This document shows positions 8,342 to 29,746 of a DNA stretch of 64,000 nucleotides, one piece after another. This DNA comes from Anaerolineae bacterium (GTDB lineage: Bacteria > Chloroflexota > Anaerolineae > UBA4142), in assembly GCA_034433515.1 (NCBI GenBank), contig DAOUAL010000065.1, positions 6,688 to 70,687 of the forward strand. The letters are read 5' to 3'. A program made the position numbers and the translations under genes. The notes below the pieces were generated by a model. The model saw only the letters and a list, made by a program, of their open reading frames with translations, was not told the DNA's origin and did not search any database. Position 1 is the stretch's first letter, and each line of letters begins with the position of its first letter.

Positions 8342-8353
8342 AAGATTCTTCAA

Positions 8354-11685: not shown

Positions 11686-11696
11686 ATTTCCTCCAA

Positions 11697-11768
11697 GACA
11701 GTGGTCAGTAGTCGGTGGACAGTGGTCAGTTTCCTGTTCACTGACCACTATCCACTGTCCCCTGTCCA
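11697..11768. repeat. Heptamer-periodic array with inverted halves (CAGTGGT.. then CACTGAC..); core hairpin 11717-11753
   Basis: GGACAGTGGTCAG / CTGACCACTATCC pair with 1 mismatch; fills the spacer between the membrane FeS gene and hdrA. Confidence 0.8.
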
Positions 11769-13718: not shown

Positions 13719-13738
13719 CGGAACTCTCCGTTCGTATC

Positions 13739-13801
13739 GGGGGCGAAGGACAGGTGCACGCTTTGCCCGACCACTCTAGCGAAGAAAGTTCCTTCGCCCC
13801 C
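13739..13801. other. Intercistronic hairpin, 12-bp perfect GC-rich arms (GGGGGCGAAGGA/TCCTTCGCCCCC), 39-nt loop
   Basis: Read directly between etfA stop and membrane FeS gene start. Confidence 0.6.
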
Positions 13802-13810
13802 ATGCCCTCG

Positions 13811-14782
13811 TCATCCCTTCGCTTGTTGCACCTTCTCTGTCAGCACGGGTAACAAATCCAGCATATCAATAGACGCGCCGAACTTGGCGAGATCGAAAAT
13901 GGGTGCGCTGGTGTCGGTGTTGACCGCGATGATCAGTTCGCTATCGCCGATGGCTTCGGTATGTTCGGGTGCGCCGCTGATGCCCAGCGCGAGATACAAT
14001 TTGGGTTTGACCGCTTTGCCGGACTTGCCAACCAGCCGCGTCGGCGCGAGCCAACCTTGATCAATCACCGGGCGCGAGGCGCAAACGACGCCACCCAACG
14101 CACGCGCTAATTCTTCCGCTAGTTCGATATTGTCTTGATTCTGAATACCACGCCCAATCGAAACCAAGATGGGTTCGCGCGCAATATCCACATCGCCTAC
14201 CGCCGGCTCGATATACTCTGTGACCGAGACGTGCAAATCGTCGAGTGTGGGTGCATCGAGGCGGACAAGTTCCGGCGATTGTGCGGCACGCCCTTGTTCC
14301 GGTTTGTAGCCGCCCGGTACCATCATCACCAGTGCCGATGGTGCGGGCAGATCGCCTTCTGCCAACAGTTTGCCACCGCAAATTTGGCTGACGAATTTGA
14401 GTGCTGTACCTTCGGCGCGTACGGTGCGGCACGCGCTAACCAACGGCAGACCCAAACGCGTCGAGAGCCACGCCGCCACATCGCCGCCAATGGTTGTATC
14501 GCCGAACAAGACCGCGCGCGGCGCGTGTTCTTTGAGCACGGTTTCCAAGGTGCGTTGGTACGCGTCCGACGAAAAATCGGCGAATGCGGGATGCTCGATG
14601 TACCACACCTGGTCTGCGGCGAGATCGGATGCCAATGGTTCAACATCGTGTCCCAACAACAGGGCGATGACCTTGCCGCCGGTCACGTTTGCCATCGCTC
14701 GTGCCGCCGCCAGCATCACGTACGAAATATCCATCACTTGTCTGCGCAAGTGTTCGATGACAACGCAAATATCTGGGTTCAT
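13811..14782 (-). CDS. etfA: Electron transfer flavoprotein alpha subunit
   Basis: C-terminal LYLALGISGAPEHTEAI..AVNTD..APIF FAD-binding motif; ATG 14782 preceded by AGGAG. Confidence 0.9.
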   Translation of the reverse strand: MNPDICVVIEHLRRQVMDISYVMLAAARAMANVTGGKVIALLLGHDVEPLASDLAADQVWYIEHPAFADFSSDAYQRTLETVLKEHAPRAVLFGDTTIGGDVAAWLSTRLGLPLVSACRTVRAEGTALKFVSQICGGKLLAEGDLPAPSALVMMVPGGYKPEQGRAAQSPELVRLDAPTLDDLHVSVTEYIEPAVGDVDIAREPILVSIGRGIQNQDNIELAEELARALGGVVCASRPVIDQGWLAPTRLVGKSGKAVKPKLYLALGISGAPEHTEAIGDSELIIAVNTDTSAPIFDLAKFGASIDMLDLLPVLTEKVQQAKG

Positions 14783-14815
14783 TGTTTCTCCTCTCAAAGT
14801 ATGAAAATTCCAACT

Positions 14816-15580
14816 TTACAGCACGCCGTGTTCCTTGAAAATTTCTACCAACCGCGTTGCCACCGTGTCGGCGTCGCCTTCGATCATCGTGGCGCGCGTG
14901 CTGACTTGAGGCTGGAACAATCGCACCGCGAGTGGCGCACCGGCAGTTTCCAATTCCATCGCCGGGAATTTTTCAAGGGTGGCACTTTTCATGGTCGCAC
15001 GGATTTTGCTGATGGGAACATAGCGCGGTGGTTTTTCGGCGGCTTGGATGCCCAGGACGGCTGGCAACATCACTTGCATTTCCGCGATCAAGCCGCCGGG
15101 AAATTCTTTGCGAATCTGGACGCTACCATCACAGACTATCACGCCGGAAACGTATCCGACATACGGCAGACCCAGATGCTCTGCCAGTTGCGGACCGACT
15201 GCGCCATCCAGATCGTTGTGGGCTTGGACGCCGGTGAGAATGAGTTCAGGGCGCAGGGTTTTGATAAAGTTGGCAAAGACACGTGCCAAGGCATGATTGT
15301 TCACTCCACGTTGCCAATTCCCAGTGAGTTTGACCAGCCGATCCGCACCTTTGGCAGCAGCGGTGAACAACACCTCATCAATACCTTCGATGTCTGGTGC
15401 AACAACCGTTACCGTGCCTGTGCCTTTCTCTTTGAGCAGAATCGCTTGTTCGATAGCGTGATCATCAAACTCGTTGAGTTTCAAGCGTAATGCGTCAGAG
15501 TCGAGTTTGGTGCCGCTGGCATCAATGACCAGTTCTTCAACGAGATCGGGAACCATCTTGATGGGGACGACTAGATTCAT
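14816..15580 (-). CDS. etfB: Electron transfer flavoprotein beta subunit
   Basis: MNLVVPIKMVPD.. typical EtfB N-terminus. ATG 15580 follows GAAGAGG. The upstream ORF extension only translates the octamer array. Confidence 0.9.
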   Translation of the reverse strand: MNLVVPIKMVPDLVEELVIDASGTKLDSDALRLKLNEFDDHAIEQAILLKEKGTGTVTVVAPDIEGIDEVLFTAAAKGADRLVKLTGNWQRGVNNHALARVFANFIKTLRPELILTGVQAHNDLDGAVGPQLAEHLGLPYVGYVSGVIVCDGSVQIRKEFPGGLIAEMQVMLPAVLGIQAAEKPPRYVPISKIRATMKSATLEKFPAMELETAGAPLAVRLFQPQVSTRATMIEGDADTVATRLVEIFKEHGVL

Positions 15581-15597
15581 CGTTATACCTCTTCGAG

Positions 15598-15725
15598 TTT
15601 CATCGTTGGGTCGTTGCATCGTTAGATCGTTGGGTCGTTGTATCGTTGCATCGTTAGATTGTTGCCTCCTTTGCCACGAGGTTGAACGAATCAACGCTGT
15701 AACGAACCGACGATGCAACGATTCG
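15598..15725. repeat. Octamer-periodic array (nnnTCGTT x8) followed by its inverse (nnCAACGn x5)
   Basis: Read directly; TCGTTGCATCGT (15611-15622 and 15643-15654) is the exact complement of ACGATGCAACGA (15710-15721). Confidence 0.85.
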
Positions 15726-15726
15726 C

Positions 15727-16926
15727 TTATCCGATAGACTCGGCTAACAATTCAACAATGTCGCGCACTTCCATCCCGCTTGCTTCGCGCACGGTCTTGA
15801 CCGCATCTTCAAAACGAGGTGGCTCGTACGGACACGCGACCACGAGGGTGGTTGCTTCTACGGCAATTGCTTCGCGGACGCGCCACTCTGAAGTTCGCGT
15901 GTGCGCCTTTTCCCAATGGAAACCTTCCAGCCACATACCGCCACCACCGCCGCCACAACACAAACTGGTTTCGCGCGTGTGCGACATTTCAACAAGGGTA
16001 ATGCCAGGAATGGCTTGCAACAGACGGCGGGGCTCGTCGTAAACCTTGTTGGCGCGACCCAAGTAACACGGATCGTGAAAAGTAATTTTGCCAGTCTCGA
16101 CCGGCTTGAGCATGGGCTGGAGTTGATCGAGGCGTTCGACTAGAAACTGGGTCACGTGGCGGACGGGATAAGTGATGTCGAGTGTGGGATAGACGTTTTT
16201 GAACGCGTTGAACGCGTGTGGATCCGTAGTGATGATTTCGTTGAAACTGTACTTGCGGAAGGCTTGCCCATTCTTGGTGGCGAGCATTTCAAATAAACCG
16301 CGTTCACCGGCAAGTCGTTGCGAATCACCGTCACCGACTTCTTCTGGACCCAGAATGGCAAAATCTACCTTGAGCGCGTTAAGAATCTTTGCCAAGGCAC
16401 GGCTGGTGGCTTGAACGCGTGGATGGTACGAAGCATAATCACCAACATACCACAACACGTCTGCCGATTTCTTGTCCTTGCCGAAAATGGGGACGGTGGC
16501 TTGGAGGCCCTTGGTCCAGTCCGCACGTTTGCGGGGCGATTGACCCAGGACATTGCCATAGCGTTGCGAGTTTTCGAGCGCGAGTTGGAGTTCGGCGGGG
16601 ACTTGGGCGGCGAGGAGCATTTCTTCTTTGGCGCGCGTCATTAATTTCTCGGTGAGCGGAATGCCGGACGGGCAGACTTCGGTGCAGGCGTAACACGCGA
16701 CGCACATCCAAACGGTGTCCGTTTTCATCACGCGATCAAAAATTTCGGAACGCAAGGCGGCGATCATGCGCCCCGGCGGATAATCCATCACATAACCAAA
16801 GGGACACACCCCGCTACACATACCGCATTGCAAACACATGCGGATGCGTTCGCCGGTGGGCGGGGTTTGCAGACTGGTGTAGAACGCCTCGTTGAACGAA
16901 GGATTGGTTAGCGTAGGAATCGTCAT
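15727..16926 (-). CDS. Soluble HdrD/GlcF/DsrK-like FeS protein (2x[4Fe-4S] + 2 CCG domains)
   Basis: CLQCGMCSGVCP, CVACYACTEVCP, HDPCYLGR, CCGGGGG; clear paralog of residues ~270-649 of the 11769-13718 product; RBS GAGGAGG. Confidence 0.8.
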   Translation of the reverse strand: MTIPTLTNPSFNEAFYTSLQTPPTGERIRMCLQCGMCSGVCPFGYVMDYPPGRMIAALRSEIFDRVMKTDTVWMCVACYACTEVCPSGIPLTEKLMTRAKEEMLLAAQVPAELQLALENSQRYGNVLGQSPRKRADWTKGLQATVPIFGKDKKSADVLWYVGDYASYHPRVQATSRALAKILNALKVDFAILGPEEVGDGDSQRLAGERGLFEMLATKNGQAFRKYSFNEIITTDPHAFNAFKNVYPTLDITYPVRHVTQFLVERLDQLQPMLKPVETGKITFHDPCYLGRANKVYDEPRRLLQAIPGITLVEMSHTRETSLCCGGGGGGMWLEGFHWEKAHTRTSEWRVREAIAVEATTLVVACPYEPPRFEDAVKTVREASGMEVRDIVELLAESIG

Positions 16927-17294: not shown

Positions 17295-17942
17295 TTAGGC
17301 TTTGACAATGCCCGCGCGAATGGCGTACTTGATTAATTCAGCGGTGTTGTGCACGCCAAGTTTTTCCATAATGTTGCTGCGATGCGTGTCCACCGTTTTG
17401 ACGCTGATTCCCAGACGGTCGGCAATCTCGCGGTTGATCAACCCTTCGGCGATGAGTTGCACGATTTGAATCTCGCGGTCCGTCAGCATGGGTGAGGGTT
17501 GGCTGGCTTTGGCGGATTCGGCGAGTGCGTTGACGAGCGCAGAGGTAATACTGGGTTGCAGATAAGCACCGTGTTCATACACGGTGCGAATCGCGGTGGT
17601 CAGTTCGTTGGCGCGTGCATCCTTGGTAATGTAGCCGACCGCGCCGGCATGCAAGAGCGGCAAGATATATTCCTTGTTCTCGTGTTGGGTCAAGACCAGA
17701 ATGCGCGTCAAAGGGGATCGGGCGTGAATCTCGCGCGTTGCGTCCAAGCCATTCATTCCCGGCATCGCAATATCCATCAACACAACGTCTGGCTTGAGCC
17801 GAAGGACCGCCTCAATGGCATGCTTGCCATCTGCCGCTTCGCCGACCACTTGCATATCTTCGCGGCGCGCGAGCAAGGCGCAAATCCCTTCGCGTACAAT
17901 GGCGTGATCATCCACCACGAGAACACGAATCGGTTGTGCCAT
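17295..17942 (-). CDS. NarL/LuxR-family response regulator (REC + HTH)
   Basis: VLVVDDH..DVVLMDIAMPGMNG receiver; C-terminal LTDREIQIV..GL.NREIA..L.IS.KTV.THR LuxR HTH. Confidence 0.9.
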   Translation of the reverse strand: MAQPIRVLVVDDHAIVREGICALLARREDMQVVGEAADGKHAIEAVLRLKPDVVLMDIAMPGMNGLDATREIHARSPLTRILVLTQHENKEYILPLLHAGAVGYITKDARANELTTAIRTVYEHGAYLQPSITSALVNALAESAKASQPSPMLTDREIQIVQLIAEGLINREIADRLGISVKTVDTHRSNIMEKLGVHNTAELIKYAIRAGIVKA

Positions 17943-17943: not shown

Positions 17944-19860
17944 TCATCCTCCTCCGCGATCTGGTGTTGGGATAGGTACGCTCAAATGAACGGTGGTGCC
18001 TTCGCGCAGAATCGAAGAAATATTCACAGTGCCACCGATGGCGCTCATCCGCTCTTTCATACCAACGATTCCCAAACCGCGTTGGCTATCGGTCAAGACG
18101 AGGTTTGGATCAAATCCTTTACCATTGTCCTTGATCCAAACTTGAACCTGGGTGGGTTCAAACGCAATGGTGAGTTCGGCGCGCGTTGCCCGTGAGTGTT
18201 GTGCAATATTGTTGATGGCTTCTTGCACCACACGAAACAGGGCTGTCTCGATGGGAGGCGGCAAACGGCGCGGTTCACCAATTTGATGAATCGTGGGACG
18301 AATGCCTAATCCATTCAAGCGTCTGTCGGCATACCAACCGATTGCCGGGATCAAACCTAGGTGATCAAGCATCGTGGGGCGCAGATCCAGAATCATCCGC
18401 CGAATTTCTTTGAGTGCGGTTGTGGTGAGTTCGTGCATGCGCTCCAACTGCGGTTTGAGATTAGCCGAGGGCGGTGCTTCGGCGGCATTGTCGAGAGCGT
18501 ATGCCAAACCGGTCAGGATCTGGCACGTTTCATCGTGGAGTTCGCGTGAGATCCGTTTGCGTTCTTCCTCTTGCGCCGTGAACACCCGATTCAGCAATTC
18601 GCGCCGGATTTGTTCCTTGCTTTGCAGTTCCTCGTACAGTTGCCGGATTTCGGCGGTGGCGCGTTCGCAGGCGGCGGTCCGCTCACGGACGCGCGCATCG
18701 AGTTCGCGATTCCAATTTTGGATTTCGGAGATGGATGCTTTGAGACGCACCCGCATGGCATCGAAGGATTGCGCCAATTTGCCAATTTCATCTTTGCCTT
18801 GGATCCCCAAGGGGGTGTCCAGATCACCGGCGGTAATCCGTTGCGTGGCGGCGGTCAATGCTTGAACGGGCGTGATGACACTCCGCGTGGTCAAATAGAC
18901 CAACCCGAGCGCGCCGGCAAGCATAATGATCATCAAGCCAAAGATGCGCATCTGTAATTGATGGATCGAGGCGAACACCTCATCTTCGCTTTGATGAACG
19001 GTAACCCCCCACTGCGCCCGTTCGAGCGGTGCCAAGGCGATGATTTCCCGAGTGCGCTGTGGGGAGGCAGAGTAGTGACAACGGTGGCAGGTGGATACGG
19101 TTTGGCGTTGCTCGCGAATCAGCGTGGCAAGATTGCCGTTGTGATCATTGTGCGTGCCGATACGTTCACTCTGCGTGCTCGCCAGGATGATGCCATCCAA
19201 ATCAACCAAATCAATGTAACCGGTTGCGCCTAGTCCGATGGGTTGCGTGAAGGTTCGCAAGTTGGGCTTGTTCAGATCAATGCTGATGACCAGCACACCG
19301 GTCACCTGCCCGTCTGCAGCGCGAATCGGTGCGGCGGCAAGGACAGCAGTGGTATTGGCATCAAGCGTGTGCAGATAGGGCGAGACGGCAAAATTGCGCC
19401 CATTGAGGACGGCTTGGATTGTGGGGCATTCAGCAAAGGAGAGCGAAGCGGGCAGGGGAGGATAAGTGGCGATGAGTTGTCCGGTCGGATCGAGCAGAAA
19501 AAGGTGGGTGGCATAGAGGCGCAGGCGTTGGAAAGCATCGGCAAGTTTTTCCATCGTGTGCGGCTGATCGAGTGCGTTGAACTGGGCAGCCGTGTACAGC
19601 ATCACATCCTCGACACTGCCGAGGATGTAATCAATGTGACGCGCCGTGCTTTGTGCCAAGACCAAGCGTTCTTGCAGAGTGCGTTGATTATTTTCGTCGA
19701 GTGCGGTGGTGCCCAGGTACGCAAACAAGCCCACGAGGGAAAGCGTGCCAATCACAACCAGCGTTGCCATCTTGGCACCCAGTCCCACGCTGGACCACAA
19801 TTGCGAGAGCGGGCGCATCAAGAAGGCTTCCCACTCTTGTGCGATGATCCGCCAGCGCAT
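17944..19860 (-). CDS. Sensor histidine kinase (2 TM, ~250-aa extracytoplasmic domain with CXXCH, HAMP, HisKA_3, HATPase)
   Basis: TM at ~31-50 and ~305-325; H-box RISRELHDETCQ; N/G boxes EAINNIAQH, DNGKGF, GLGIVGM; RBS GGAGGG. Confidence 0.9.
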   Translation of the reverse strand: MRWRIIAQEWEAFLMRPLSQLWSSVGLGAKMATLVVIGTLSLVGLFAYLGTTALDENNQRTLQERLVLAQSTARHIDYILGSVEDVMLYTAAQFNALDQPHTMEKLADAFQRLRLYATHLFLLDPTGQLIATYPPLPASLSFAECPTIQAVLNGRNFAVSPYLHTLDANTTAVLAAAPIRAADGQVTGVLVISIDLNKPNLRTFTQPIGLGATGYIDLVDLDGIILASTQSERIGTHNDHNGNLATLIREQRQTVSTCHRCHYSASPQRTREIIALAPLERAQWGVTVHQSEDEVFASIHQLQMRIFGLMIIMLAGALGLVYLTTRSVITPVQALTAATQRITAGDLDTPLGIQGKDEIGKLAQSFDAMRVRLKASISEIQNWNRELDARVRERTAACERATAEIRQLYEELQSKEQIRRELLNRVFTAQEEERKRISRELHDETCQILTGLAYALDNAAEAPPSANLKPQLERMHELTTTALKEIRRMILDLRPTMLDHLGLIPAIGWYADRRLNGLGIRPTIHQIGEPRRLPPPIETALFRVVQEAINNIAQHSRATRAELTIAFEPTQVQVWIKDNGKGFDPNLVLTDSQRGLGIVGMKERMSAIGGTVNISSILREGTTVHLSVPIPTPDRGGG

Positions 19861-19887: not shown

Positions 19888-20721
19888 TCAGCGAGAGGGT
19901 AAGTTGTGATGAGGCAAGGGCTGACCGAACAGATTCTGGGTCAACATGAGGTTGCGTTCAACGACCAGCAAGCGTTCAAGTTGATATTGGTCCAAGGTCC
20001 AAAGGTGTTTGCCGCACACCGTGCATTGACAGAGCAGATAACCTGGCATGTCAGTCGCCAAATAGGTCAATTGGTCTGGTTCGTCTGTGCCGCAAAACGA
20101 ACAGGTCAATCGCCAATAACTCCATTCCAAGTCGCACCGCGAGCACAAGAGTTTGCGTTCGCCGGTTTTCTTCTCGAGCGCGGCAAAATCGGGCGCGCCG
20201 CCGCACAGAGGGCAAAAGGGATGATACCACATACTATTGTCCACATAGCCGCCGAGCAGTCGGGCATATTTGCGGAGGGTGGGATGGAGGGCTTGATTGA
20301 AAACAAAGGCGAGGAGCGCGCGTGGCAGACCGGCTTGCTCCCCTTGCGGGACCACCCCCTTGTCCCAATAACTCTTGACGCAAGTGATCAAGTGTTGGTG
20401 TTCTTGGCATAGCCAATCTCGGATGGCTTCGAGCGTGGAGGCATAATGAGGAAAATGTTTGGCGGTAATGATGCAGACCTGATGACACAAGATCGTAAAG
20501 GTCAAGGGGTAGAGTGTGAATTCATTCCACTGTAAAATAGGTTGACCGGCTCTCAAGCGTGCCGCCGCATCTTGGGCTTGGCGCTCATAATCACAGTAGC
20601 GGGGCGCGGTGCGGGCTTGGATGTTTAGCAGGGCTAACCAGTACGCAACCAGATGACCAAGGTGCGGTTGCAGCACAGCTTGGTTCTGCAATGCCTCCCG
20701 GATTCTGTCATAGCCCACCAT
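19888..20721 (-). CDS. FdhE-like protein (four CXXC motifs)
   Basis: CPLCGG, CSRCDLEW, CSFCGT, CTVCGK in the spacing typical of FdhE C-terminal half. Confidence 0.65.
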   Translation of the reverse strand: MVGYDRIREALQNQAVLQPHLGHLVAYWLALLNIQARTAPRYCDYERQAQDAAARLRAGQPILQWNEFTLYPLTFTILCHQVCIITAKHFPHYASTLEAIRDWLCQEHQHLITCVKSYWDKGVVPQGEQAGLPRALLAFVFNQALHPTLRKYARLLGGYVDNSMWYHPFCPLCGGAPDFAALEKKTGERKLLCSRCDLEWSYWRLTCSFCGTDEPDQLTYLATDMPGYLLCQCTVCGKHLWTLDQYQLERLLVVERNLMLTQNLFGQPLPHHNLPSR

Positions 20722-20729: not shown

Positions 20730-21191
20730 TTAGGCAGTTTGGCGTGCGGCGGCTAACTCCACGCGTGCAAAATGCAGACGTTCCAAAGCGATGGATGCGA
20801 CTTGGCGCATCAAGTTATAGCCCATTTTGGAGTCAATCTCGCAGAGGGCGCGCAAGGCAGGCGCGTCCACTTTGAGAATGCGACTAGGGCTTGCCACGCG
20901 TGCGGTCGCCGTCAGGGTGTAAGGTTCAATCAACGCCGAGATGCTAAAGGCTTCCCCTACATTGACTTCACCCACCAGGAACTCTTCACGCGCATCGCCG
21001 CTGGCGGCATAATAGAGGTCAATGTTCCCGTCCATCAACAAGTACAACGCTTCAACCGGTTGACCTTCGCGGAAGAGGACGGTGCCGGTATCGGCAAAAA
21101 TTTCTTCCGACACCATTGCAATCGCTTTTTGCTGATCCTCGTTGAGACAGCAAAAAAAGGGATAGCGGCGCAGTACTTCGGGGGAGATCAT
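20730..21191 (-). CDS. Stand-alone CAP/cNMP-binding-like effector domain protein (no HTH)
   Basis: 153 aa; LRRYPFF...LFREGQPVEALYLLMDG...GEAFSISALI beta-barrel pattern; ATGA overlap with protease gene. Confidence 0.75.
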   Translation of the reverse strand: MISPEVLRRYPFFCCLNEDQQKAIAMVSEEIFADTGTVLFREGQPVEALYLLMDGNIDLYYAASGDAREEFLVGEVNVGEAFSISALIEPYTLTATARVASPSRILKVDAPALRALCEIDSKMGYNLMRQVASIALERLHFARVELAAARQTA

Positions 21192-21667
21192 TTTCCGGCT
21201 CCTTCCTTGTGATCGAGTTGTTGTAGAACGAGTTGAACGGCATGCGGGACGGCAGCGGCAATGGCTGGCGACAACGTTTCCGAAAAATCGTACACGGCTT
21301 GCGCTTCGATGGCAACGATTTCGATTTGGTGTGGCAAAACCGCACCCATCCGGCGTCCCACCTGGATCGCTGTTTGCAAGGTGGTCTCGTGCGCCGAAGC
21401 GAGATGACTCGTGGCATCGTTGGGCAAATCTTCTAAGCGAAAATAACTCACGGTGCCCGGCGGCGCGCGCCCGGTCTTGATCGCATCTATGATGATGGTG
21501 CGATCATAGCCGATGAGACGTTCCATCAAACTCAAGCCGCCGCCGGCATGAAAATCTATTTCGATGGTTGGGTCGGCGATTTGATCGCGGACGCGCTCAG
21601 CAACCCGCCAGCCCACGCCATCATCGCCGAGTAGTGGATTACCTAGACCCAGTACGAGTGTACGCAT
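21188..21667 (-). CDS. [NiFe]-hydrogenase maturation endopeptidase (HycI/HoxW/FrhD family)
   Basis: MRTLVLGLGNPLLGDDGVG..; GGLSLME..; alternative upstream start at 21688. Confidence 0.8.
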   Translation of the reverse strand: MRTLVLGLGNPLLGDDGVGWRVAERVRDQIADPTIEIDFHAGGGLSLMERLIGYDRTIIIDAIKTGRAPPGTVSYFRLEDLPNDATSHLASAHETTLQTAIQVGRRMGAVLPHQIEIVAIEAQAVYDFSETLSPAIAAAVPHAVQLVLQQLDHKEGAGK

Positions 21668-21668
21668 C

Positions 21669-22124
21669 TTAGGTGCGTGCGGCGGCAAGTTGGATGCGCG
21701 TAAAATAAAGTCGTTCCATGGCGGCGGCAGCGACTTGGCGCATCAGAATATAACCCAGTTTGCAATCGTTTTCGCAAAGCGCACGCAACCCTGCTGCGTG
21801 AATGCGAATCATTTGACACGCCGTCGTGGCACGGGCAGTGTGAGTTAGGGTGTGCGGCGGAATGAGCGCGGAAATGGCAAAGGGTTCGCCCGGGTTCACC
21901 TCGTCAACGTGAATCTGCGCGTGCGGATCGAGCGGCGAATTGAAAGACAACGCCACGCTTCCTTCGAGCAAGAGATAAAAAGCGTCTGCGGTTTGACCTT
22001 CTTCAAAGAGGATTGTCCCCGCCGGTGCTTGCACATGTTCCGCAATGATCGCGATGGATTTCAATTCGCGTTCATCGAGCCCGGCGAAAAAAGGATAGCG
22101 GCGTAATAGTTCCAGCGAAATCAT
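21669..22124 (-). CDS. Stand-alone CAP/cNMP-binding-like effector domain protein (paralog)
   Basis: 151 aa; roughly half the residues identical by eye to the 20730-21191 product; RBS GGGGAG. Confidence 0.75.
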   Translation of the reverse strand: MISLELLRRYPFFAGLDERELKSIAIIAEHVQAPAGTILFEEGQTADAFYLLLEGSVALSFNSPLDPHAQIHVDEVNPGEPFAISALIPPHTLTHTARATTACQMIRIHAAGLRALCENDCKLGYILMRQVAAAAMERLYFTRIQLAAART

Positions 22125-22195: not shown

Positions 22196-23662
22196 TCAAC
22201 AATGTTGTCTGAGCACTTGGACCACACTTCCTTGGGCATCTCGAATGGTGATTTGCAGTGGCATCTGCCCCGGTAAGGAATGCGTGGCGCAACCAAAACA
22301 AGGATCGTATGCGCGGAATGCCATCTCCACACGATTCAGGATACCTTCGCTGATGACCACGCCTTGTTTGATGAAACTCTGTGCCGCCTTTTTGATGCTC
22401 ATACTGATTGGTGCATAGTTGTTCGTCGTACCCACGATGAGATTCACTTTGGTGAGAATGCCACGCTCATCCGTCCAGTAGTGATGGGTCAACGTGCCGC
22501 GTGGCGCTTCGACAATGCCCACTCCTTCGGTTGGCGTCGCCGTCGGAATCGTGCGGAAATTATCCGAGGTGATTTCCGGATCGCTTGCCAATTCGACCCA
22601 GCGCTCCGCCGCGTACAGTAGTTCGATGAGGCGCGCCCAATGCGTGGCAAGGCGTTGATGCACCGGCTTGCCGCCGAGCGTCGCGTAGAATTTTTCGTAC
22701 TCGGCTTGCGCCAACGGGGTTGCCATCCCGTCCGCCGCATTCAAGCGCGATAGTGGTGTGGCGCAGTACACGCCGGACTCTTTGCCGTCCACAAAACCTT
22801 TCCAACCGATTTTCTTGAGGTACGGGAATTTCAGGTACGTCCACGGCTCCACGTGTTCGGCGATCCAATCGGTGTACTCGTTGGGCGCGTACTTGCCGAT
22901 CCGTTTGCCTTCCGGATCCACCACGCTGATGTTGCCCTCGTAAAAGTTCACGCGATTTCGATCGTCCACCATCCCGATGCTGTACGTCCGGTGAGTGTAG
23001 GCATCGCCCAGGATGAGATCCACGTATGCCTTGTTGCCCAACACAATATCGCTGAACAGTTTGAGCGAGAATTGTCCAAACTCGACTGCCCAATGACCCA
23101 TCTTGAGGATTTCGTCGCGTTGTTCGGCCGTGATGCCTTTGCTCAAGCCACCGGGAATCGAGGTGCAAGGATGCACTTTGCGCCCACCAATCATTTCGAT
23201 GACGGTGTGCCCGGCTTTACGCGCTTGAATCACCTTGCCACCAATTTCCAGTCCGACTTTGTGTATCACGCCCAGAATGTTGCGCTCGGCGACCGGCGCA
23301 TCGGGTCCCATCACAAAATCGGGGCCGCCCAGGGCGTAGAAATGAGTGGCGTGATCGGTAACGTAGAACGCGCTGTACAACAATTCACGCAAAAGTTTGG
23401 CAGGGCGCGGTGGGTCAACGTGATAAACGGCATCGCATGCTTTTGCCGCCGCCATATGATGGGCTTCCGGACAAACACCGCAGATGCGTCCGGTCAGCAC
23501 CGGCATTTCTTCCACCGGTCTGCCCACGCAAAATTGTTCAAAGCCACGCAGTTCTGGAATTTGAAAGTACGTGTTGGCGACGTTGCCATTGTCATCCAAA
23601 AAAATTTCGATCTTGCCATGACCTTCCAGCCGTGTAATCGGATCTATGGTGATGCGTTGCAT
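22196..23662 (-). CDS. mvhA: [NiFe]-hydrogenase large subunit, MvhA-like (group 3c type)
   Basis: N-terminal RICGVCPEAHH and C-terminal DPCFGCATH Ni-binding motifs; sits with mvhD/mvhG/hdrABC. Confidence 0.9.
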   Translation of the reverse strand: MQRITIDPITRLEGHGKIEIFLDDNGNVANTYFQIPELRGFEQFCVGRPVEEMPVLTGRICGVCPEAHHMAAAKACDAVYHVDPPRPAKLLRELLYSAFYVTDHATHFYALGGPDFVMGPDAPVAERNILGVIHKVGLEIGGKVIQARKAGHTVIEMIGGRKVHPCTSIPGGLSKGITAEQRDEILKMGHWAVEFGQFSLKLFSDIVLGNKAYVDLILGDAYTHRTYSIGMVDDRNRVNFYEGNISVVDPEGKRIGKYAPNEYTDWIAEHVEPWTYLKFPYLKKIGWKGFVDGKESGVYCATPLSRLNAADGMATPLAQAEYEKFYATLGGKPVHQRLATHWARLIELLYAAERWVELASDPEITSDNFRTIPTATPTEGVGIVEAPRGTLTHHYWTDERGILTKVNLIVGTTNNYAPISMSIKKAAQSFIKQGVVISEGILNRVEMAFRAYDPCFGCATHSLPGQMPLQITIRDAQGSVVQVLRQHC

Positions 23663-23664: not shown

Positions 23665-24660
23665 CTATTCTCCTTCAACCTTGCCATTCCAGGCACTTTT
23701 GCTGGCGCGCAGCAGGGAACCCGCCATTCCAAAACGATAAAACATGCCGGCCGGGTCAGGGATGCCATCCAAAATCTTTTCGATCTCTTTGGGATCGCGT
23801 GAGTCTATGACCGAGGCAACCGCGCTCAACAAGCGTGCCCCTTGATCAAGCGTGCCTTCGGTGGGACCGTAGCAACCCACACAGGGCATCCCGGCAGTAG
23901 GGCAAGCCGCTCCACACCCACTGCGCGTGGCAGAGCCATTGCACAAGATACCTTGCTCCAACAAACAGACTTCTGGATCAGGTTTGAAATCTTGAATGCG
24001 AAGGAATTGTTTGATCTTTTTCTCACTGCGCGTTCGTTTGCATTCTTCGCACACGCTCGATTGTCCTGCACCGATCACAGCCCCTTTGGGGGGTAATTCG
24101 GCTTTGCCTTGCAACACTTGGATCACCAGATCAATCACCGCCGCAATCTGATGCGATTCCGGCGGACAGCCCGGCATATAGTAATCTACCGGCACTACTT
24201 GATTGAGCGACTTGACGACCGGGTACATTTCCGGAATCGTGACTTGACCCTCGGGCGCATTCCAACTCGAGTGTGGCAAGACGTGATTGGGATTGTCAGT
24301 CGAAAGGGTGTTGTACACGGTGTCGAAGATGGCTTGCTTGGAGGAAAGATTGCCGAGCGCCGGAATGCCACCCTCGGTGGCGCAGGCACCAAACGCCACC
24401 AGGATTTGCGATTTACGTCGGAGCAAGCGTGCGAGGTGGGCGTTCTCGTCATTGCGAATCGCGCCATTGAACAAGGTCAGCAAGATGGACTTGTCTTCCA
24501 TCGCTTCCACGTCTTTGTATTTGGCGTCCATAGCGACGGGCCAAAAGACCACCTCAAAGTTGGCATCTACATCCAAGATTTTTTCGTGGATGTTGAGGAC
24601 GGCGATCTCGCAACCGCCACACGATGCTGACCAATACATTGCGAACTTGGGCTTGCTCAT
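23665..24660 (-). CDS. mvhG: [NiFe]-hydrogenase small subunit, MvhG-like (no Tat signal)
   Basis: MSKPKFAMYWSASCGGCEIA..; ATG 24660 after GGAGG, ATGA overlap with mvhD stop. The longer ORF to 24819 is an Arg-rich spurious extension. Confidence 0.85.
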   Translation of the reverse strand: MSKPKFAMYWSASCGGCEIAVLNIHEKILDVDANFEVVFWPVAMDAKYKDVEAMEDKSILLTLFNGAIRNDENAHLARLLRRKSQILVAFGACATEGGIPALGNLSSKQAIFDTVYNTLSTDNPNHVLPHSSWNAPEGQVTIPEMYPVVKSLNQVVPVDYYMPGCPPESHQIAAVIDLVIQVLQGKAELPPKGAVIGAGQSSVCEECKRTRSEKKIKQFLRIQDFKPDPEVCLLEQGILCNGSATRSGCGAACPTAGMPCVGCYGPTEGTLDQGARLLSAVASVIDSRDPKEIEKILDGIPDPAGMFYRFGMAGSLLRASKSAWNGKVEGE

Positions 24661-25148
24661 ACGTGCGCCTCCTTCCCGACAGGTTGCGGGTGTTTTTCCT
24701 CTGCGCCGTGCGGCCGTTTTCCGTCGGCTTTCCAGTTCAACGGACCCAAGGCGCGTACATCCTCCACCATCTTGGTCGCCTGTTCGGCAAAGTAGGCGCC
24801 TTCGGCGGCACTCGCCCAAATCAGTTTCAGCCGTTCGGGCTCAATGCCGAGTTGGGTGATCAGACGTTTGAGCAACAGATAGCGGCTTTGAGTTTTATAG
24901 TTCTGCTCTAAATAGTGACAATCGCCGGGATGACAACCGCTAATCAGGACCCCATCGGCGCCGGAGGCAAATGCTTTCAGTACGAAGGTGGGGTCTAGCC
25001 GCCCGGAACACATCAAACGAATCAGGCGGAGATTGGGCGGGTATTTCATCCGCCCCAATCCTGCCATATCTGCCGCGCGATAACTGCACCAGTTGCAGGT
25101 AAAACCGATGATTAAGGGTTCAAATTTTTCAGCCATAGTTCTCTCCAT
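24657..25148 (-). CDS. mvhD: MvhD (methyl-viologen-reducing hydrogenase delta subunit) family protein
   Basis: IIGFTCNWCSY..AG....YP.N...IR..CSGR......L.AF..GADGVL..GCH.GDCHY signature. Confidence 0.9.
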   Translation of the reverse strand: MERTMAEKFEPLIIGFTCNWCSYRAADMAGLGRMKYPPNLRLIRLMCSGRLDPTFVLKAFASGADGVLISGCHPGDCHYLEQNYKTQSRYLLLKRLITQLGIEPERLKLIWASAAEGAYFAEQATKMVEDVRALGPLNWKADGKRPHGAEEKHPQPVGKEAHV

Positions 25149-25251: not shown

Positions 25252-27279
25252 TCACACCGGGATGGGTTCCAATGCAGTGATGGGAACACCGTTGGGGAGC
25301 AACAGACCCGTTAATTGCGCCATCACTTGTTGATTGCTAAAGACGGTGCCGCGAATGGCGCCGGCCGGGCACGCGGCAACACACGTGCCACATCCCTGAC
25401 ACAATGCTGGGTTCACCTCCGAGTAAGCACGCGAGCCGTTCTGTTTTTCAACAAATGTAATTGCATTGAACGGACAGAGATTATTACAGATGCGACAGCC
25501 GGAACATTTCTCTTTATCAATCTCTGCCCGCACCGGTTCCAGCGCGATTTCTCTTTGTTGAATCTTGCCGATGACCCGGGCTGCTGCGGCTGCGCCTTGG
25601 GCAACCGCCGCTGGAATATCTTTGGGTCCCTGCGCACAGCCGGCGATATAGATGCCTTCCGTCATCGTCGCCACCGGATCGAGTTTGGGATGCTTTTCGA
25701 TAAACCAGCCGTTCATACTGCACGAGATCCCAAACAGTTGTGCAACTTGCTTGGCATCGCGGCGTGGCTCTAGCGCGACGGACAGGATGACCATATCTAC
25801 CGGGATACGCCGCTGTTTGCCGATGAGGGTATCTTCGACTTGGATGATCAGTTTGCCTTCCTCGCCCGGCAAACGGGCGGCATCGGTTACTTCGGCAACG
25901 CGCCCCCGTACGAACAAGGTACCTTCTTCCAGCACCCGTTGATAAAACTCGTCATAGTCTTTGAACGCCGTGCGAATATCCATATAAAAGTTGTACACGG
26001 TGGCGCCGGTTTTTTCCTTGACCAGATGCGCAAATTTCAAACTCTGCATACAACAAATGTTGGAGCAGTAATTGTTGTACCGCTTGTCCCGGCTACCGAC
26101 GCAATGAATGATGCCCACCGTTTTGGGTACAGTTACGCCATCGCGCAAAACCACTTTGCCGCCGGTGGGTCCCGCCGCATTCGTCAAGCGTTCAAACTCG
26201 AGACTGGTGAACACGTTGGCAAGCCGACCATAGCCGTACTGCGGAATGCGGCGCGGATCAAAGAGATCGTACCCGGTTGCCAAGATGATGTTGCCCACTT
26301 GGAGCGTGATCGTTTCATCGCGTTGTTTGAAATCAATCGCGCCGGTTGGACAGAATTTTTCGCACGCCTTGCAGGTGCCTTTTTGGAAATAGGTGCAGTT
26401 TTCGCGATCAATCACCGGATATTTGGGGACGGCTTGCGGGAAGGGTTTATAAACCGCCTTGCGATAACCCAGCCCGGCTTCGAAAACTTGGTCCACGACT
26501 TTTTTGGGACACTTGTCTTGACACACGCCGCACCCGTTGCACAAATCGGTGTTGATGTAGCGGGCTTTCTTTTTCACCGTCACGGTGAAATTGCCGACAT
26601 AGCCATCTACATTGGTTACTTCGCTGTAACTGAGCAACGTGATGTTGGGATGATTACCCACCGAGACCATCTTGGGGGTGAGAATACACGCGGAACAGTC
26701 GAGCGTGGGGAAGGTTTTATCGAACTGCGCCATATGTCCGCCGATCGAAGGTTCACGCTCGACGAGGTACACCGGCGTGCCGCTGTCTGCGATTTCCAGG
26801 GCGGCTTGAATGCCGGCAACGCCTCCGCCAACGATCAGGGTAGCCGGATGAATAGGGACGCGCAATGGTTCCAAGGGTTCGTGATATTGAACACGTTCCA
26901 CGGCGCCGGCAATCAACGCCATGGCTTTTTCGGTGGCGGCGAGGGGATCGGTATGCACCCAGGAGACTTGTTCGCGAATCGAAACCAGTTCGCACAAATA
27001 GCCATTCAAGCCGGCGCGCGCGCACGCATTGCGAAAGGTTTGTTCGTGCAGGTGGGGCGAACAGGCGGCAACGACGACGCGCGTCAACCCTAGTTCTTTA
27101 ATGTCCTTTTGAATCATCTCTTGGCCCGGGCTGGAGCACATGAATTTGTAATCGCGTGCCACGACTACACCGCGATCTTTCAGACGTTCGCCAGCCCAGC
27201 GGGCGGTATTTTCGCAATCAACCATTCCATTGATATTACTGCCACAATGGCAAACGTACACACCAATGCGTTGAGTCAT
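25252..27279 (-). CDS. hdrA: Heterodisulfide reductase subunit A (paralog 2)
   Basis: MTQRIGVYVCHCGSNING, HCVGSRD, C-terminal ferredoxin motifs; highly similar to the 9661-11685 product along its full length. Confidence 0.9.
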   Translation of the reverse strand: MTQRIGVYVCHCGSNINGMVDCENTARWAGERLKDRGVVVARDYKFMCSSPGQEMIQKDIKELGLTRVVVAACSPHLHEQTFRNACARAGLNGYLCELVSIREQVSWVHTDPLAATEKAMALIAGAVERVQYHEPLEPLRVPIHPATLIVGGGVAGIQAALEIADSGTPVYLVEREPSIGGHMAQFDKTFPTLDCSACILTPKMVSVGNHPNITLLSYSEVTNVDGYVGNFTVTVKKKARYINTDLCNGCGVCQDKCPKKVVDQVFEAGLGYRKAVYKPFPQAVPKYPVIDRENCTYFQKGTCKACEKFCPTGAIDFKQRDETITLQVGNIILATGYDLFDPRRIPQYGYGRLANVFTSLEFERLTNAAGPTGGKVVLRDGVTVPKTVGIIHCVGSRDKRYNNYCSNICCMQSLKFAHLVKEKTGATVYNFYMDIRTAFKDYDEFYQRVLEEGTLFVRGRVAEVTDAARLPGEEGKLIIQVEDTLIGKQRRIPVDMVILSVALEPRRDAKQVAQLFGISCSMNGWFIEKHPKLDPVATMTEGIYIAGCAQGPKDIPAAVAQGAAAAARVIGKIQQREIALEPVRAEIDKEKCSGCRICNNLCPFNAITFVEKQNGSRAYSEVNPALCQGCGTCVAACPAGAIRGTVFSNQQVMAQLTGLLLPNGVPITALEPIPV

Positions 27280-27280: not shown

Positions 27281-28261
27281 TTATTTCTCCTCCGGCATCA
27301 CTGGCATCGGGAGTGCTTCTTTCGATTTGTGGGATTTGCGGGCGAGCGGCTCTTCCGCCGGCGGCGGGACTTGGACGCCGATGCGTGATAACGCCGGGCG
27401 CGCATCCACCACTTCGGCGCCAATCCCCAACGTTGCCGCATCCAACCCGAATGCCAAGCCCATCATCTGGGTAAAGTACAGCACCGGCATCTGATAATTG
27501 GTTTTGTAGTACCGATTCATCGCGCCTTGAAAACCATCGAGGTTCAATTGACACATCGGGCAAACGGTGGCGATGAGATCGGCGTTGTAATCGGCGGCAC
27601 CCTTGACCAATTGATGAATCAAATCAAAGGCCACCGATTCGCTGATCTGGGTCATATGCCCGCCGCAACAATGCGCCTTCATGGGATAATCCACCACTTC
27701 GGCACCCAGGGTCTTGAGCAGTTTATCGAGCGCGGTGGGATATTCCGGATCATCAATCTGCCCATAAAATGCCGGGCGCCCAATCAAGCAGCCATAGTAC
27801 GGCGCAATGCGCAGTCCTTTGAGGGGCTTGGTCACGCGTTGGGCAATGGCGGCATAGCCCACATCGTTGACAAGTACATCCAACAAATGGCGTGTCTTGA
27901 TGGTGCCGGGTTGGTAACTCAATCCGCCTTCAGCGAGCGCGGTGTTTACTTTGGCGGCAAGCGATGCATCTTCGCCGAGATACTTGTCGGCTTTGCTCAA
28001 ATTGAGATAGCACGCACTACACGGTGCAATCATTTCGCGATAGCCATTCATCTTGGACGCCAACGCCAGACTGCGGGCGATCAGGGCGTACGCCGCCATC
28101 CGGTTGAGCGCGATATATTCGGTGGCACCGCAACAGTTCCAATCATCTACCTCAACAAGTTCAATGTCGAGGGCTTGCGCGGCGGCGAGCGTAGATTGCC
28201 AGTAAGGATAACCCGCCGCGCCTTTTTCCAATGAACAGCCGGGATAGATCAGATACTTCAT
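27281..28261 (-). CDS. hdrB: Heterodisulfide reductase subunit B
   Basis: MKYLIYPGCS, DDWNCCGA, AHCCGGH (two CCG domains). Confidence 0.9.
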   Translation of the reverse strand: MKYLIYPGCSLEKGAAGYPYWQSTLAAAQALDIELVEVDDWNCCGATEYIALNRMAAYALIARSLALASKMNGYREMIAPCSACYLNLSKADKYLGEDASLAAKVNTALAEGGLSYQPGTIKTRHLLDVLVNDVGYAAIAQRVTKPLKGLRIAPYYGCLIGRPAFYGQIDDPEYPTALDKLLKTLGAEVVDYPMKAHCCGGHMTQISESVAFDLIHQLVKGAADYNADLIATVCPMCQLNLDGFQGAMNRYYKTNYQMPVLYFTQMMGLAFGLDAATLGIGAEVVDARPALSRIGVQVPPPAEEPLARKSHKSKEALPMPVMPEEK

Positions 28262-28857
28262 GCGTTACCTCCCAGGATGTGCGCGTCGTCTTGTGCTTCC
28301 AATTCTTTGGCTTTGGCAAGAATCGCTTTCAAACCGTCTATCCCTTTGATGCGTTTGGGGGTGAAACTTAAACGCCCTTTGGTGACCATACTGATGCCCA
28401 TATCGGCGATTTTGAACACGCCAAACGGATTGTGCTTGAGCATATGCCGCGACATCAAGCCGAGTTCAAACGCGCGTCCGTAACTCTCGACGGTGGAGAC
28501 AAAGGTCTTGGAGAAATCGGGGGCGATGGATTCGTCAAACAATTGAGTTTTGACCGAGAGACGTTTCAGGGTGTACATCAAATCGGTAACATGGACTTGT
28601 TGGGGACACCGCACCATGCAATAGTAACACGAGACACAGAACCATGGGGTGTTGCTACGCAGGACGGCTTCTTTCATCCCGGCGCGCACCATCGCAAAGA
28701 TTTCGCGAGGGGTATGTTCCATATCTGAGCCAGAGGGACATGAGCCACCGCACGTACCACATTGAATACACATGACGAGGTGTGGTTCGCCGGGTGTGGC
28801 GGCAACAACTTGATCCAAAAAGGTAGTTGGCGGTGCATTGGGCGCAATCGCGTGCAT
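28258..28857 (-). CDS. hdrC: Heterodisulfide reductase subunit C
   Basis: CIQCGTCGGSCP and CVSCYYCMVRCP; ATG 28857 is 8 nt after GGAGG (ORF track start 28875 overlaps that RBS). Confidence 0.85.
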   Translation of the reverse strand: MHAIAPNAPPTTFLDQVVAATPGEPHLVMCIQCGTCGGSCPSGSDMEHTPREIFAMVRAGMKEAVLRSNTPWFCVSCYYCMVRCPQQVHVTDLMYTLKRLSVKTQLFDESIAPDFSKTFVSTVESYGRAFELGLMSRHMLKHNPFGVFKIADMGISMVTKGRLSFTPKRIKGIDGLKAILAKAKELEAQDDAHILGGNA

Positions 28858-29032
28858 AACGTTTTCCTCCATCAAAATCTATAGACCAGTGACTTGCGGG
28901 ATTAATCGGAAACCCAAAGAGGGACGTAACTTCGTTGTTTCGTCCCGCCGCTTGTCTCTAGTGTATGCTATCTTGGCGCGACTGACTATCGGTAAAATTC
29001 TGTATTTTGGAATTACAGAGTTTCTGTATCCA

Positions 29033-29072
29033 TGAAAGAAACAAAACCTGCCAGACGATTGTCTGACAGGTT
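29033..29072 (-). terminator. Rho-independent terminator after response regulator 2
   Basis: AACCTGTCAGAC-AATC-GTCTGGCAGGTT on minus strand (12 bp, 1 mismatch), followed by UUUUGUUUCUUUC. Confidence 0.7.
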
Positions 29073-29095: not shown

Positions 29096-29746
29096 TTACA
29101 CGTCCAAGATGCCTTCGCGAATCGCATACTTGATGAGTTCCGCGCTGTTGCGCACCCCCAATTTTTCCATAATGTTGGAACGATGCGTATCCACCGTTTT
29201 GACGCTGATGGACAACTGTTCCGCAATTTGCCGGCTACTCAATCCTTCGGCGATGAGACGCACAATTTGAATTTCGCGTTCGGTGAGGAGGATGGAGTGG
29301 GTGGCATTGGCATCCTGCGATTCGGCGAGGGCGGTAACCACGCGACTGGCGATTTCCGGCGGAAGATATGCCCCGGTGGTATGCACGGCGCGAATGGCTT
29401 GCAGGACCTCTTGCGCGCGGGCGCGTTTGCTGATGTAACCCACCGCACCGGCTTGAAGCAAGGGCATGATATATTCCTTGTTCTCGTGCTGCGTCAACAC
29501 CAACACACGTGTGGCGGGAAATTGTTTGTGAATTTCGCGCGTGGCTTCCAACCCATTCATCACCGGCATCGTAATATCCATCAGCACCACGTCAGGACGC
29601 AATCGCGCGACCGCCTCAATCGCTTGTTTGCCATCCACGACCTGGCCCACAATTTCGATATCTTTGCAACGCGCGACTACCGCGCTAATCCCATCGCGCA
29701 CAATGGCATGATCATCAGCTAACAACACTCGAATTACTTTGGACAT
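29096..29746 (-). CDS. NarL/LuxR-family response regulator (paralog 2)
   Basis: Collinear with 17295-17942 product; same REC and LuxR HTH motifs. Confidence 0.9.
   Translation of the reverse strand: MSKVIRVLLADDHAIVRDGISAVVARCKDIEIVGQVVDGKQAIEAVARLRPDVVLMDITMPVMNGLEATREIHKQFPATRVLVLTQHENKEYIMPLLQAGAVGYISKRARAQEVLQAIRAVHTTGAYLPPEIASRVVTALAESQDANATHSILLTEREIQIVRLIAEGLSSRQIAEQLSISVKTVDTHRSNIMEKLGVRNSAELIKYAIREGILDV

Follow-up and report, generated by a model that had tools for sequence, protein, structure and literature searches.

Why should two stand-alone cyclic nucleotide-binding (CNB) domain proteins be encoded on either side of a gene for a hydrogenase maturation protease? The question is raised by a 64,000-nucleotide stretch (hereafter the window) of contig DAOUAL010000065.1 of an Anaerolineae bacterium (Chloroflexota), in which two such genes, here called CNB1 and CNB2, bracket the protease gene within an hdr-mvh operon. 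An earlier note on this DNA had argued that the ligand of both proteins is probably not cAMP or cGMP, and had offered a sensor, chaperone or subunit role that has not been described. We report here that genes of this kind are recurrent accessory genes of hdrCBA-mvhDGA operons in Anaerolineae-type Chloroflexota, that binding of cAMP or cGMP by their products is, judging from the sequences, very unlikely, and that the repeated fusion of such a domain to the protease points tentatively to the maturation step as its site of action.

The two genes and their products

The two paralogous open reading frames (ORFs) described in the earlier note, CNB1 (21669-22124, 151 aa) and CNB2 (20730-21191, 153 aa), were both confirmed on the minus strand. 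Their products are 53% identical over 150 residues aligned without gaps (E 8e-57), and they do share the ends that had been pointed out, MIS.E.LRRYPFF at the N-terminus and RL.F.R..LAAAR at the C-terminus. Comparison with orthologs in other metagenome-assembled genomes (MAGs) gave ratios of non-synonymous to synonymous substitution rates (dN/dS) of 0.12-0.15 for CNB1 and 0.07-0.16 for CNB2; both are real genes under purifying selection.

In a profile search each protein matched PF00027 as a stand-alone domain (53.6 bits for CNB1 and 45.7 bits for CNB2, against a gathering threshold of 27.5), and neither a helix-turn-helix (HTH) nor any second domain was found with Pfam, the HTH_Crp_2 profile included. 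The NCBIfam matches span only the effector half of CRP/FNR-type models, with scores far under the cut-offs; the closest similarity is to the effector domain of FtrB, and there is a weak one to the CNB part of Pat. The gene flanked by CNB1 and CNB2 (21188-21667, minus strand, 159 aa) encodes, as had been supposed, a HybD/HycI-type [NiFe]-hydrogenase maturation endopeptidase (PF01750; TIGR00072, 121.8 bits).

The CAP-effector fold that had been assigned to these proteins was supported by structure prediction. The AF2 model of CNB1, built with 40 homologs (predicted local distance difference test score, pLDDT, 93.7; predicted template modelling score, pTM, 0.86), contains the eight-stranded CNB beta-barrel, the N-terminal and the B/C helices characteristic of PF00027/CAP_ED, and a 30-residue C-helix (residues 121-150) that ends the protein. 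Foldseek returned 640 PDB matches at E<=0.001, and the best 50 were all CNB-domain or CRP-family structures. The barrel and helices are shared with canonical cyclic nucleoside monophosphate (cNMP) domains, namely those of E. coli CRP, the regulatory subunits of PKA/PKG and MlotiK1 (Foldseek E 1e-9 to 1e-11), whereas the HTH, kinase-inhibitor or channel moiety of canonical cNMP proteins is absent. In particular, sensors of the CRP/FNR type carry a C-terminal winged HTH and act on DNA, whereas the proteins of the window stop with the C-helix at residues 151 and 153.

In a rough neighbour-joining (NJ) tree, CNB1 falls among the genes located directly after mvhA, and CNB2 clusters with those located after the protease gene, so that the two copies of the window go back to two old clades rather than to a recent tandem duplication. 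Among the other two-copy arrangements are the order MvhA-CNB-CNB without a protease gene and a divergent third type placed after the post-protease copy. A short contig with the order mvhG-mvhA-CNB1, 78-92% identical to the window (CAYJNF010000535.1, 2.9 kb; locus L007), had been binned as part of a 'Chitinophagales' MAG; it is probably a mis-binned Chloroflexota contig.

Association with hdrCBA-mvhDGA operons

When one genome per species was scanned, a CNB gene of this type turned up at 266 loci. The best 80 of the 266 were examined (loci are numbered L, and proteins P), and those with at least 600 nt of upstream sequence (n=73) were considered informative. The Mvh protease gene lies immediately upstream of the CNB gene in 46 of these 73 loci, and in another 10 this place is taken by mvhA with no protease gene between, so that the CNB gene directly follows one or the other in 56/73. 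In one locus mvhA is found further upstream, three loci are of the HdrA-MvhD-formate-dehydrogenase type, and the remaining 13 are without any Hdr/Mvh gene. The usual order is hdrCBA-mvhDGA-protease-CNB, with the CNB gene last and often translationally coupled to the gene of the MvhA-specific HybD-type endopeptidase, and the same order was seen in independent metagenome contigs.

The 3' side of the CNB gene was less uniform. No conserved downstream gene was found among these loci, the CNB gene being mostly the last of its operon; the recurrent minorities were hyp maturation genes on the same strand (10 of the 80 loci, plus L003) and GNAT genes (9 loci).

In the reverse direction, we analyzed 80 metagenome loci chosen by MvhA similarity alone (68-87% identity). 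A CNB gene was present in 22 (38%) of the 58 that had enough downstream sequence. Taken together, the co-location of the CNB gene with Mvh accessory and maturation genes (56/73, 22/58, and hyp genes downstream in 10/80) makes it a recurrent accessory gene of hdrCBA-mvhDGA in Anaerolineae-type Chloroflexota. The earlier note had proposed a link with the hydrogenase operon that would fail if homologs were unconnected with hydrogenase loci. They are connected with them in 56/73 cases; the link was too broadly drawn in two respects, as it holds in cis for just 38% of the MvhA-selected loci and the family is not exclusive to hydrogenases.

The endopeptidase, its presumed substrate and its fusions with CNB domains

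The endopeptidase of the window is related to HybD (PDB 1CFZ/2KML; E 6e-12). Its start was set at the ATG at 21667, on the basis of the sequence near the CNB1 stop and of the N-termini of homologs; the ORF list gives a TTG start (21688) that overlaps CNB1. The metal-ligand positions of HybD are kept (D16, D63 and H95, which are invariant in the alignment of the fusion proteins described below). The presumed substrate of the protease is a 27-aa C-terminal extension (22199-22279, SLPGQMPLQITIRDAQGSVVQVLRQHC) that follows the DPCFGCATH motif of MvhA, the large subunit of a MvhA/VhuA-type group 3c [NiFe]-hydrogenase (22196-23662, minus strand; PF00374; NF041785 VhuA, 398 bits). This extension is highly conserved in the window and in loci L088-L167 (SLPGQMPL..TIRD..G..V.VL.Q.C). 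An Arg occupies its position 13 in 17 of 22 MvhA-selected loci with a CNB gene and in 15 of 34 without one, a weak bias that is not corrected for phylogeny.

The search of cluster representatives revealed a 319-aa protein (P0243) composed of HycI and cNMP_binding domains, and a search with P0243 found this architecture in at least 12 clusters at 90% identity (P0243, P0403-P0409, P0411, P0413, P0416 and P0477). In these proteins, which are 32-83% identical to P0243 and have linkers of different lengths, the CNB domain is fused to the C-terminus of the endopeptidase, and all 11 aligned fusions keep the motif M[ILV]SPE[IL]LR.Y.FF directly after the linker. One fusion is known from two alleles; 79 of their 960 nt are different and the reading frame is preserved, which rules out an assembly error. 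The three fusion genes whose context was read (L170-L172) are located directly after mvhA in hdr-mvh operons, i.e. in the slot otherwise occupied by the separate protease and CNB genes.

These fusions, the common operon slot and the hyp genes downstream suggest that the endopeptidase with its substrate pre-MvhA is the partner of the CNB proteins, at least of those of the CNB2 type. Among the sensor, chaperone and subunit roles that had been offered for CNB1 and CNB2 without a choice between them, the fusion evidence singles out the maturation protease as the partner.

In two further loci (L168, 8-448, and L169, 1499-2272) a fusion of the P0243/P0391 lineage is preceded by a gene for a DUF554 membrane protein and not, unlike in L170-L172, by mvhA.

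A subfamily with a solved structure

By sequence as well as by fold, the nearest solved structure is that of Gmet_1532 of Geobacter metallireducens (PDB 3MDP), deposited by the Joint Center for Structural Genomics (JCSG) in 2010 as a 'putative cyclic nucleotide-binding protein'. It matches residues 1-140 of CNB1 with a profile E of 2.6e-42 at 44% identity, and superimposes on the model with TM-scores of 0.84/0.95 and a root-mean-square deviation of 1.2 A. Like CNB1 and CNB2, Gmet_1532 is a stand-alone protein with the N-terminal motif MISPE.LR.Y.FF, and the segment equivalent to its phosphate-binding cassette is likewise degenerate (FGVSSLIKPYHY, in which Val stands in place of Glu and Tyr in place of Arg). 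Unlike the window proteins, it is 141 aa long and lacks both the C-terminal FTRVQLAAAR and Cys117. The next-best matches of CNB1 were effector domains of the CRP family (GlxR, Mtb CRP, DNR and Clr) and PKA/PKG domains; DNR and GlxR rank among the best by sequence and fold.

When 1.84 billion cluster representatives were searched exhaustively with the profile, 163 clusters (50% identity) matched at E<=1e-30, which we treat as the subfamily, and 4101 at E<=1e-10, which comprise generic CNB domains. Most subfamily members are stand-alone proteins of 141-163 aa from MAGs of Anaerolineae/Chloroflexota. Conservation peaks in the N-terminal helices (residues 1-26), in the loop equivalent to the cassette (77-99; consensus G-E-x-F-[AG]-I-S-A-L-I-x-P-[HY]) and in the tail of the C-helix (140-150). 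With their similarity to 3MDP, the N-terminal MISPE.LRRY.FF and a loop of the form G-[EA]-x-[FL]-[AG]-[IV]-S-[AS]-L-I-x-P-[HY], CNB1 and CNB2 belong to a distinct subfamily, with Gmet_1532 as its structural prototype. Its members are named 'Crp/Fnr family transcriptional regulator' or 'CRP-like cAMP-binding protein' in the databases, and these names are unjustified, because the proteins have no DNA-binding domain.

No paper describing the family was found in the open-access literature, in agreement with the claim that its role has not been described, and the same literature yielded no paper on the function of 3MDP or Gmet_1532. The proteins are nevertheless not wholly new, since one member has this solved, although unpublished, structure.

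Loss of the anchors for cyclic nucleotides

In canonical cassettes a Glu contacts the ribose 2'-OH and an Arg contacts the phosphate. The earlier note had aligned the equivalent segments of CNB1 and CNB2 in such a way that the Arg was replaced by Tyr or His and two residues were inserted. We determined the register anew with two profile alignments, one made with HMMER between the family profile and the canonical CNB domain 2PQQ, the other with hhalign against E. coli CRP. The segment consists of residues 77-99 of CNB1 (21828-21896, minus strand; NPGEPFAISALIPPHTLTHTARA) and, in the same register through the gapless CNB1-CNB2 alignment, of nucleotides 20895-20963 of CNB2 (minus strand; NVGEAFSISALIEPYTLTATARV).

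The earlier register was ruled out by both of these independent alignments. Neither needs the two-residue insertion; the loop is one residue shorter than that of CRP, with the hhalign gap on the side of the family. The Gly-Glu that had been recognized in the sequence (G79-E80) falls on the 'GD' ahead of F-G-E (CRP G67-D68), whereas the canonical Gly-Glu (CRP G71-E72) corresponds to A83-I84 in CNB1 and S83-I84 in CNB2. CRP R82-S83 is matched by L93-T94, T94 taking the [ST] position, and the Tyr/His at residue 91 lies two residues upstream of the canonical Arg.

The loss of the Arg therefore stands, and more strongly than had been claimed, because the ribose-binding Glu is gone as well. Among 242 family members, none has Glu or Asp in column 84 and none has Arg or Lys in column 93, while S85 and P90 are invariant. 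Across the subfamily Gly-Glu is replaced by [AG]-[IV] and the Arg by Leu, Tyr or Phe, and the cassette of functional cAMP/cGMP receptors, F-G-E-[LIV]-A-L...R-[ST]-A, is not found. In this respect CNB1 and CNB2 differ from the canonical domains, in which both Gly-Glu and Arg-[ST] are present. In all 242 members the Glu position is occupied by a non-acidic residue and the Arg position by a non-basic one; the family is therefore very unlikely to bind cAMP or cGMP, as the earlier note had predicted, and we infer that any ligand would be hydrophobic or otherwise unlike a nucleotide.

Degenerate cassettes are common among CRP/FNR proteins, and the fold offers precedents for the sensing of signals other than cNMP, among them CooA, DNR, FNR, CprK, NtcA and PrfA. 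A metal, haem or FeS site common to the family was considered and rejected. Unlike in those sensors, there is no family-wide set of Cys/His residues suggestive of haem or of an FeS cluster: Cys117 is shared by 112 of 122 window-like members and by none of the 120 Gmet_1532-like ones, and His91 and His95 are confined to particular clades (in CNB2 these positions are taken by Tyr and Ala).

Family members outside hydrogenase operons

Unlike the genes of the window, that of Gmet_1532 (L085, 9001-9426) is located not in a hydrogenase operon but at the end of the bbs operon for the beta-oxidation of benzylsuccinate. The same holds for its ortholog in Geotalea daltonii (L087, 7321-7746); the gene follows those for ETF-alpha/beta and for a 654-aa FeS/CCG oxidoreductase, back-to-back with the cluster for benzylsuccinate synthase (bss). 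In a contig of Ca. Aquidulcis (DYJA01000004.1; L001 15568-16456 / L012 ~7487-7930), a CNB domain of the subfamily forms the C-terminus of NrfD, the membrane subunit of a molybdopterin oxidoreductase. Such NrfD::CNB proteins (530-532 aa; also P0355 and P0392) are followed by a stand-alone CNB protein (P0040, 159 aa) and then by an FdhE-like gene. Other members occur in the HdrA-MvhD-formate-dehydrogenase loci and beside a NuoF/G-like pair, and a few lie among unrelated genes.

A conserved 188-aa GNAT protein is encoded within tens of nt after the CNB gene, or after a protease::CNB fusion gene, in nine loci (L038 962-1528, L040 8502-9068, L044, L051, L063, L072, L080, L084 and L171 5989-6555).

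The best profile hits also included several multi-domain proteins (P0241, 840 aa; P0242, 532 aa; and P0270/P0350/P0364, ~660 aa) that either contain 3-5 tandem CNB copies or combine tandem CNB domains with a PlsC-type acyltransferase in one chain. In the clade of L046, L049, L053, L055 and L061 (CNB at ~8001-8468), which has no Hdr/Mvh genes nearby, the CNB gene always follows one for a large protein (~830-940 aa) with a hydrophobic-looking N-terminus.

Proposed role and rival explanations

We propose, with a probability of roughly 0.45, that the CNB proteins are non-catalytic regulatory or adaptor partners of the step in which the endopeptidase matures pre-MvhA. They would act by protein-protein contact on the last and irreversible step of Mvh large-subunit maturation, the removal of the 27-aa extension after Ni insertion, and CNB2 would be the trans-acting counterpart of the fused domain, which works in cis. 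The CNB1 clade, which tracks MvhA and not the protease, may dock on pre-MvhA, or may pair with CNB2 through the C-helix, the dimerising element of CRP-family proteins. As a regulator, the CNB protein would resemble the PKA R subunits, in which a CNB protein acts in trans on a catalytic partner and which serve here as a working analogy; otherwise it may be an adaptor. If a ligand exists, it should not be cAMP or cGMP.

To our knowledge, C-terminal processing of the large subunit of [NiFe]-hydrogenases is regarded as self-sufficient, in that a small endopeptidase dedicated to this task recognises the precursor once it is loaded with Ni, and no description of a partner protein or fused regulatory domain for this step was found in the open-access literature. 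Many hydrogenase accessory genes are lineage-specific and non-universal. The CNB gene resembles those of the accessory chaperones known from HybD/HycI/HoxW systems (HyaE/HybE, HupG/H and HoxL) in that it lies beside the endopeptidase gene and is likewise lineage-specific and not universal; the CNB fold is, as far as we know, unrelated to any known hydrogenase accessory factor.

Several observations weigh against a partnership with the endopeptidase. The CNB gene was not found in 36 of the 58 MvhA-selected loci, so that in cis it is a frequent and non-obligatory accessory, which many close relatives either do without or encode at another site, and the extension of MvhA is equally conserved with and without it. 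In 10 loci mvhA is followed by the CNB gene with no protease gene nearby. Family members also occur in loci without a hydrogenase (the bbs operons, NrfD fusions, HdrA-MvhD-formate-dehydrogenase loci and orphan loci). Finally, in the AF2 model of a natural fusion both domains are folded (pLDDT 92.4) and no fixed interface between them is predicted (pTM 0.65). A more specific form of the proposal, in which the CNB protein is a ligand- or redox-gated regulatory subunit of the endopeptidase that makes Hdr-Mvh maturation conditional on a metabolite signal, is in our judgement rather unlikely.

The members outside hydrogenase operons lend themselves to another explanation, which we consider doubtful while taking it seriously: the CNB proteins may be general sensors of small molecules or redox state that dock on assembled anaerobic redox complexes, here Hdr-Mvh, and tune their activity, the adjacency to the protease gene being a matter of operon packing. 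The position beside ETF and CCG-type FeS oxidoreductase genes in Geobacter and Geotalea, the fusion to the NrfD subunit of a Mo-oxidoreductase and the loci with HdrA-MvhD-formate dehydrogenase or the NuoF/G-like pair are all consistent with such sensors. So is the pattern of conservation, since the best-conserved parts (N-terminal helices, cassette loop and tail of the C-helix) are the allosteric switch elements of canonical CNB domains. In Hdr-Mvh operons, however, the recurrent fusion partner is the protease and never an Hdr or Mvh subunit, the CNB gene tracks the position of the protease gene in 46/73 loci, and some of the loci have hyp genes after it. The fusion to the protease also argues against an additional structural subunit of mature bacterial Hdr-Mvh that has no ligand-dependent role and occupies the operon slot of methanogen mvhB, as we know of no mature [NiFe]-hydrogenase that includes the endopeptidase. 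The place of the CNB gene as the last of the structural operon in most loci, and of CNB1-type genes directly after mvhA, would suit such a subunit, which we nevertheless regard as improbable: there is no cofactor motif (Cys117 being lineage-specific), and 62% of the close MvhA relatives do not have the gene in cis.

Three further readings take the domain at its annotated or canonical value. The database names, the similarity to the FtrB effector domain, the long C-helix of the dimerising type and the histidine kinase/response regulator (HK/RR) pairs that flank the operon of the window and, in L001, come after the CNB gene could all be expected of a truncated CRP/FNR-type transcriptional co-regulator that works through these pairs or through heterodimers with full-length CRP/FNR factors. 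We hold this to be quite improbable, given that an HTH is lacking, that no full-length CRP/FNR gene is present in the window, that HK/RR genes adjoin only in the nearest relatives and are absent from most loci, and that fusion to a protease or to NrfD would be unexpected for a transcription co-factor. The nine loci with a GNAT gene, together with the weak resemblance to the CNB part of Pat seen with NCBIfam, raise the possibility of a split version of the mycobacterial CNB-GNAT fusion protein Pat (Rv0998/MSMEG_5458), whose CNB domain controls an enzyme and not DNA, and binds cAMP via a canonical cassette. A CNB protein that regulates a separately encoded acetyltransferase is very improbable, however: no GNAT gene is found in the window or in most loci, and in L095 one follows the protease gene with no CNB gene detected. 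As to an ordinary cAMP/cGMP receptor, the PF00027 match exceeds its threshold, but all 242 members examined have hydrophobic residues in place of the phosphate and ribose anchors, which leaves this reading scarcely credible.

The operon of the window and its surroundings

CNB1 and CNB2 belong to one long operon on the minus strand, for which the window ORFs and their Pfam/NCBIfam matches give the order hdrC-hdrB-hdrA-mvhD-mvhG-mvhA-CNB1-protease-CNB2-FdhE-like. The hdrC (28258-28875), hdrB (27281-28261) and hdrA (25252-27279) genes were assigned as ORFs conserved upstream of MvhDGA in related loci, where hdrCBA is kept 5' of MvhDGA and the called genes give the Pfam matches CCG, Fer4 and FAD_oxidored. 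They are followed by the genes for MvhD (24657-25148; PF02662, 173.6 bits) and for the MvhG/VhuG small subunit (23665-24660; PF01058 and NF045875, 230.9 bits); the likely start of the latter is MSKPKF at 24660, judging from homolog ORFs that start with MSKPKFAMYW. The last gene (19888-20721) encodes an FdhE-like 4xCxxC protein (sub-threshold TIGR01562 and PF24859; PDB 2FIY, FdhE homolog, E 1.3e-6), and its adjacency to a CNB gene was found in the window, L012 and L016.

The CNB1 stop is separated from the ATG of the protease gene by 1 nt, the protease stop and the CNB2 start overlap as ATGA, and 8 nt lie between the CNB2 stop and the start of the FdhE-like gene. A strong terminator-like hairpin (29045-29072, minus strand; 12-bp stem and T-run) between the upstream response regulator gene and hdrC marks the 5' boundary of the operon. 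Scanning of the minus strand from 28875 to 19888 for terminators disclosed just one weak site, of 5 bp, within hdrC (28791-28774). There are no further CNB paralogs and no hyp maturation genes within the window.

The operon is bracketed by two minus-strand gene pairs for a Cache-HAMP-HisKA_3 histidine kinase and a LuxR-type response regulator, one on the upstream side (29715-31697 / 29096-29746) and one on the downstream side (17944-19860 / 17295-17942). The pairs are paralogous, with response regulators that are ~69% identical, as deduced from L005, a locus on the Chloroflexota MAG contig JBBITT010000024 to which the window is ~99% identical. A link of the CNB genes to these two-component systems was rejected; the arrangement is confined to the nearest relatives of the window (L001, where a pair also lies 3' of the CNB gene, and L005) and does not extend to the bulk of the loci.

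A second Hdr-like/ETF cluster is located downstream of the operon on the minus strand (9661-16926). It comprises genes for a CCG/4Fe-4S oxidoreductase (15727-16926), putative EtfB (14816-15718) and putative EtfA (13811-14797), both assigned by eye and with the help of an ETF gene that occupies the corresponding position in L001, a 649-aa ORF (11769-13718) and a gene for an HdrA-like FAD/FeS protein (9661-11769). The ETF/CCG counterparts in L001 are situated directly upstream of hdrA-mvhDGA-CNB.

Significance

The CNB domain itself, and one solved member of the subfamily, were already known; what appears to be undescribed is the link of such proteins to the maturation endopeptidase, and their repeated fusion to it, in the Hdr-Mvh operons of Chloroflexota. 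For the subfamily as a whole, the orphan structural-genomics structure 3MDP gains a functional context, and hundreds of annotations as 'Crp/Fnr transcriptional regulator' can be corrected.

Because a conserved partner with a ligand-binding fold adjoins the endopeptidase and is repeatedly fused to it, our results suggest that maturation or assembly of the electron-bifurcating Hdr-Mvh complex may be assisted or regulated in many uncultured Anaerolineae/Chloroflexota. Were the CNB protein a gated subunit of the endopeptidase, it would constitute a post-translational checkpoint in hydrogenase biogenesis and add a new class of ligands to those of the CNB fold. If it is instead a sensor of assembled complexes, the subfamily would amount to a regulatory module that is portable between anaerobic redox enzymes (Hdr-Mvh, Hdr-Fdh, NrfD-type Mo enzymes and bbs/ETF), which would be equally new to the literature.

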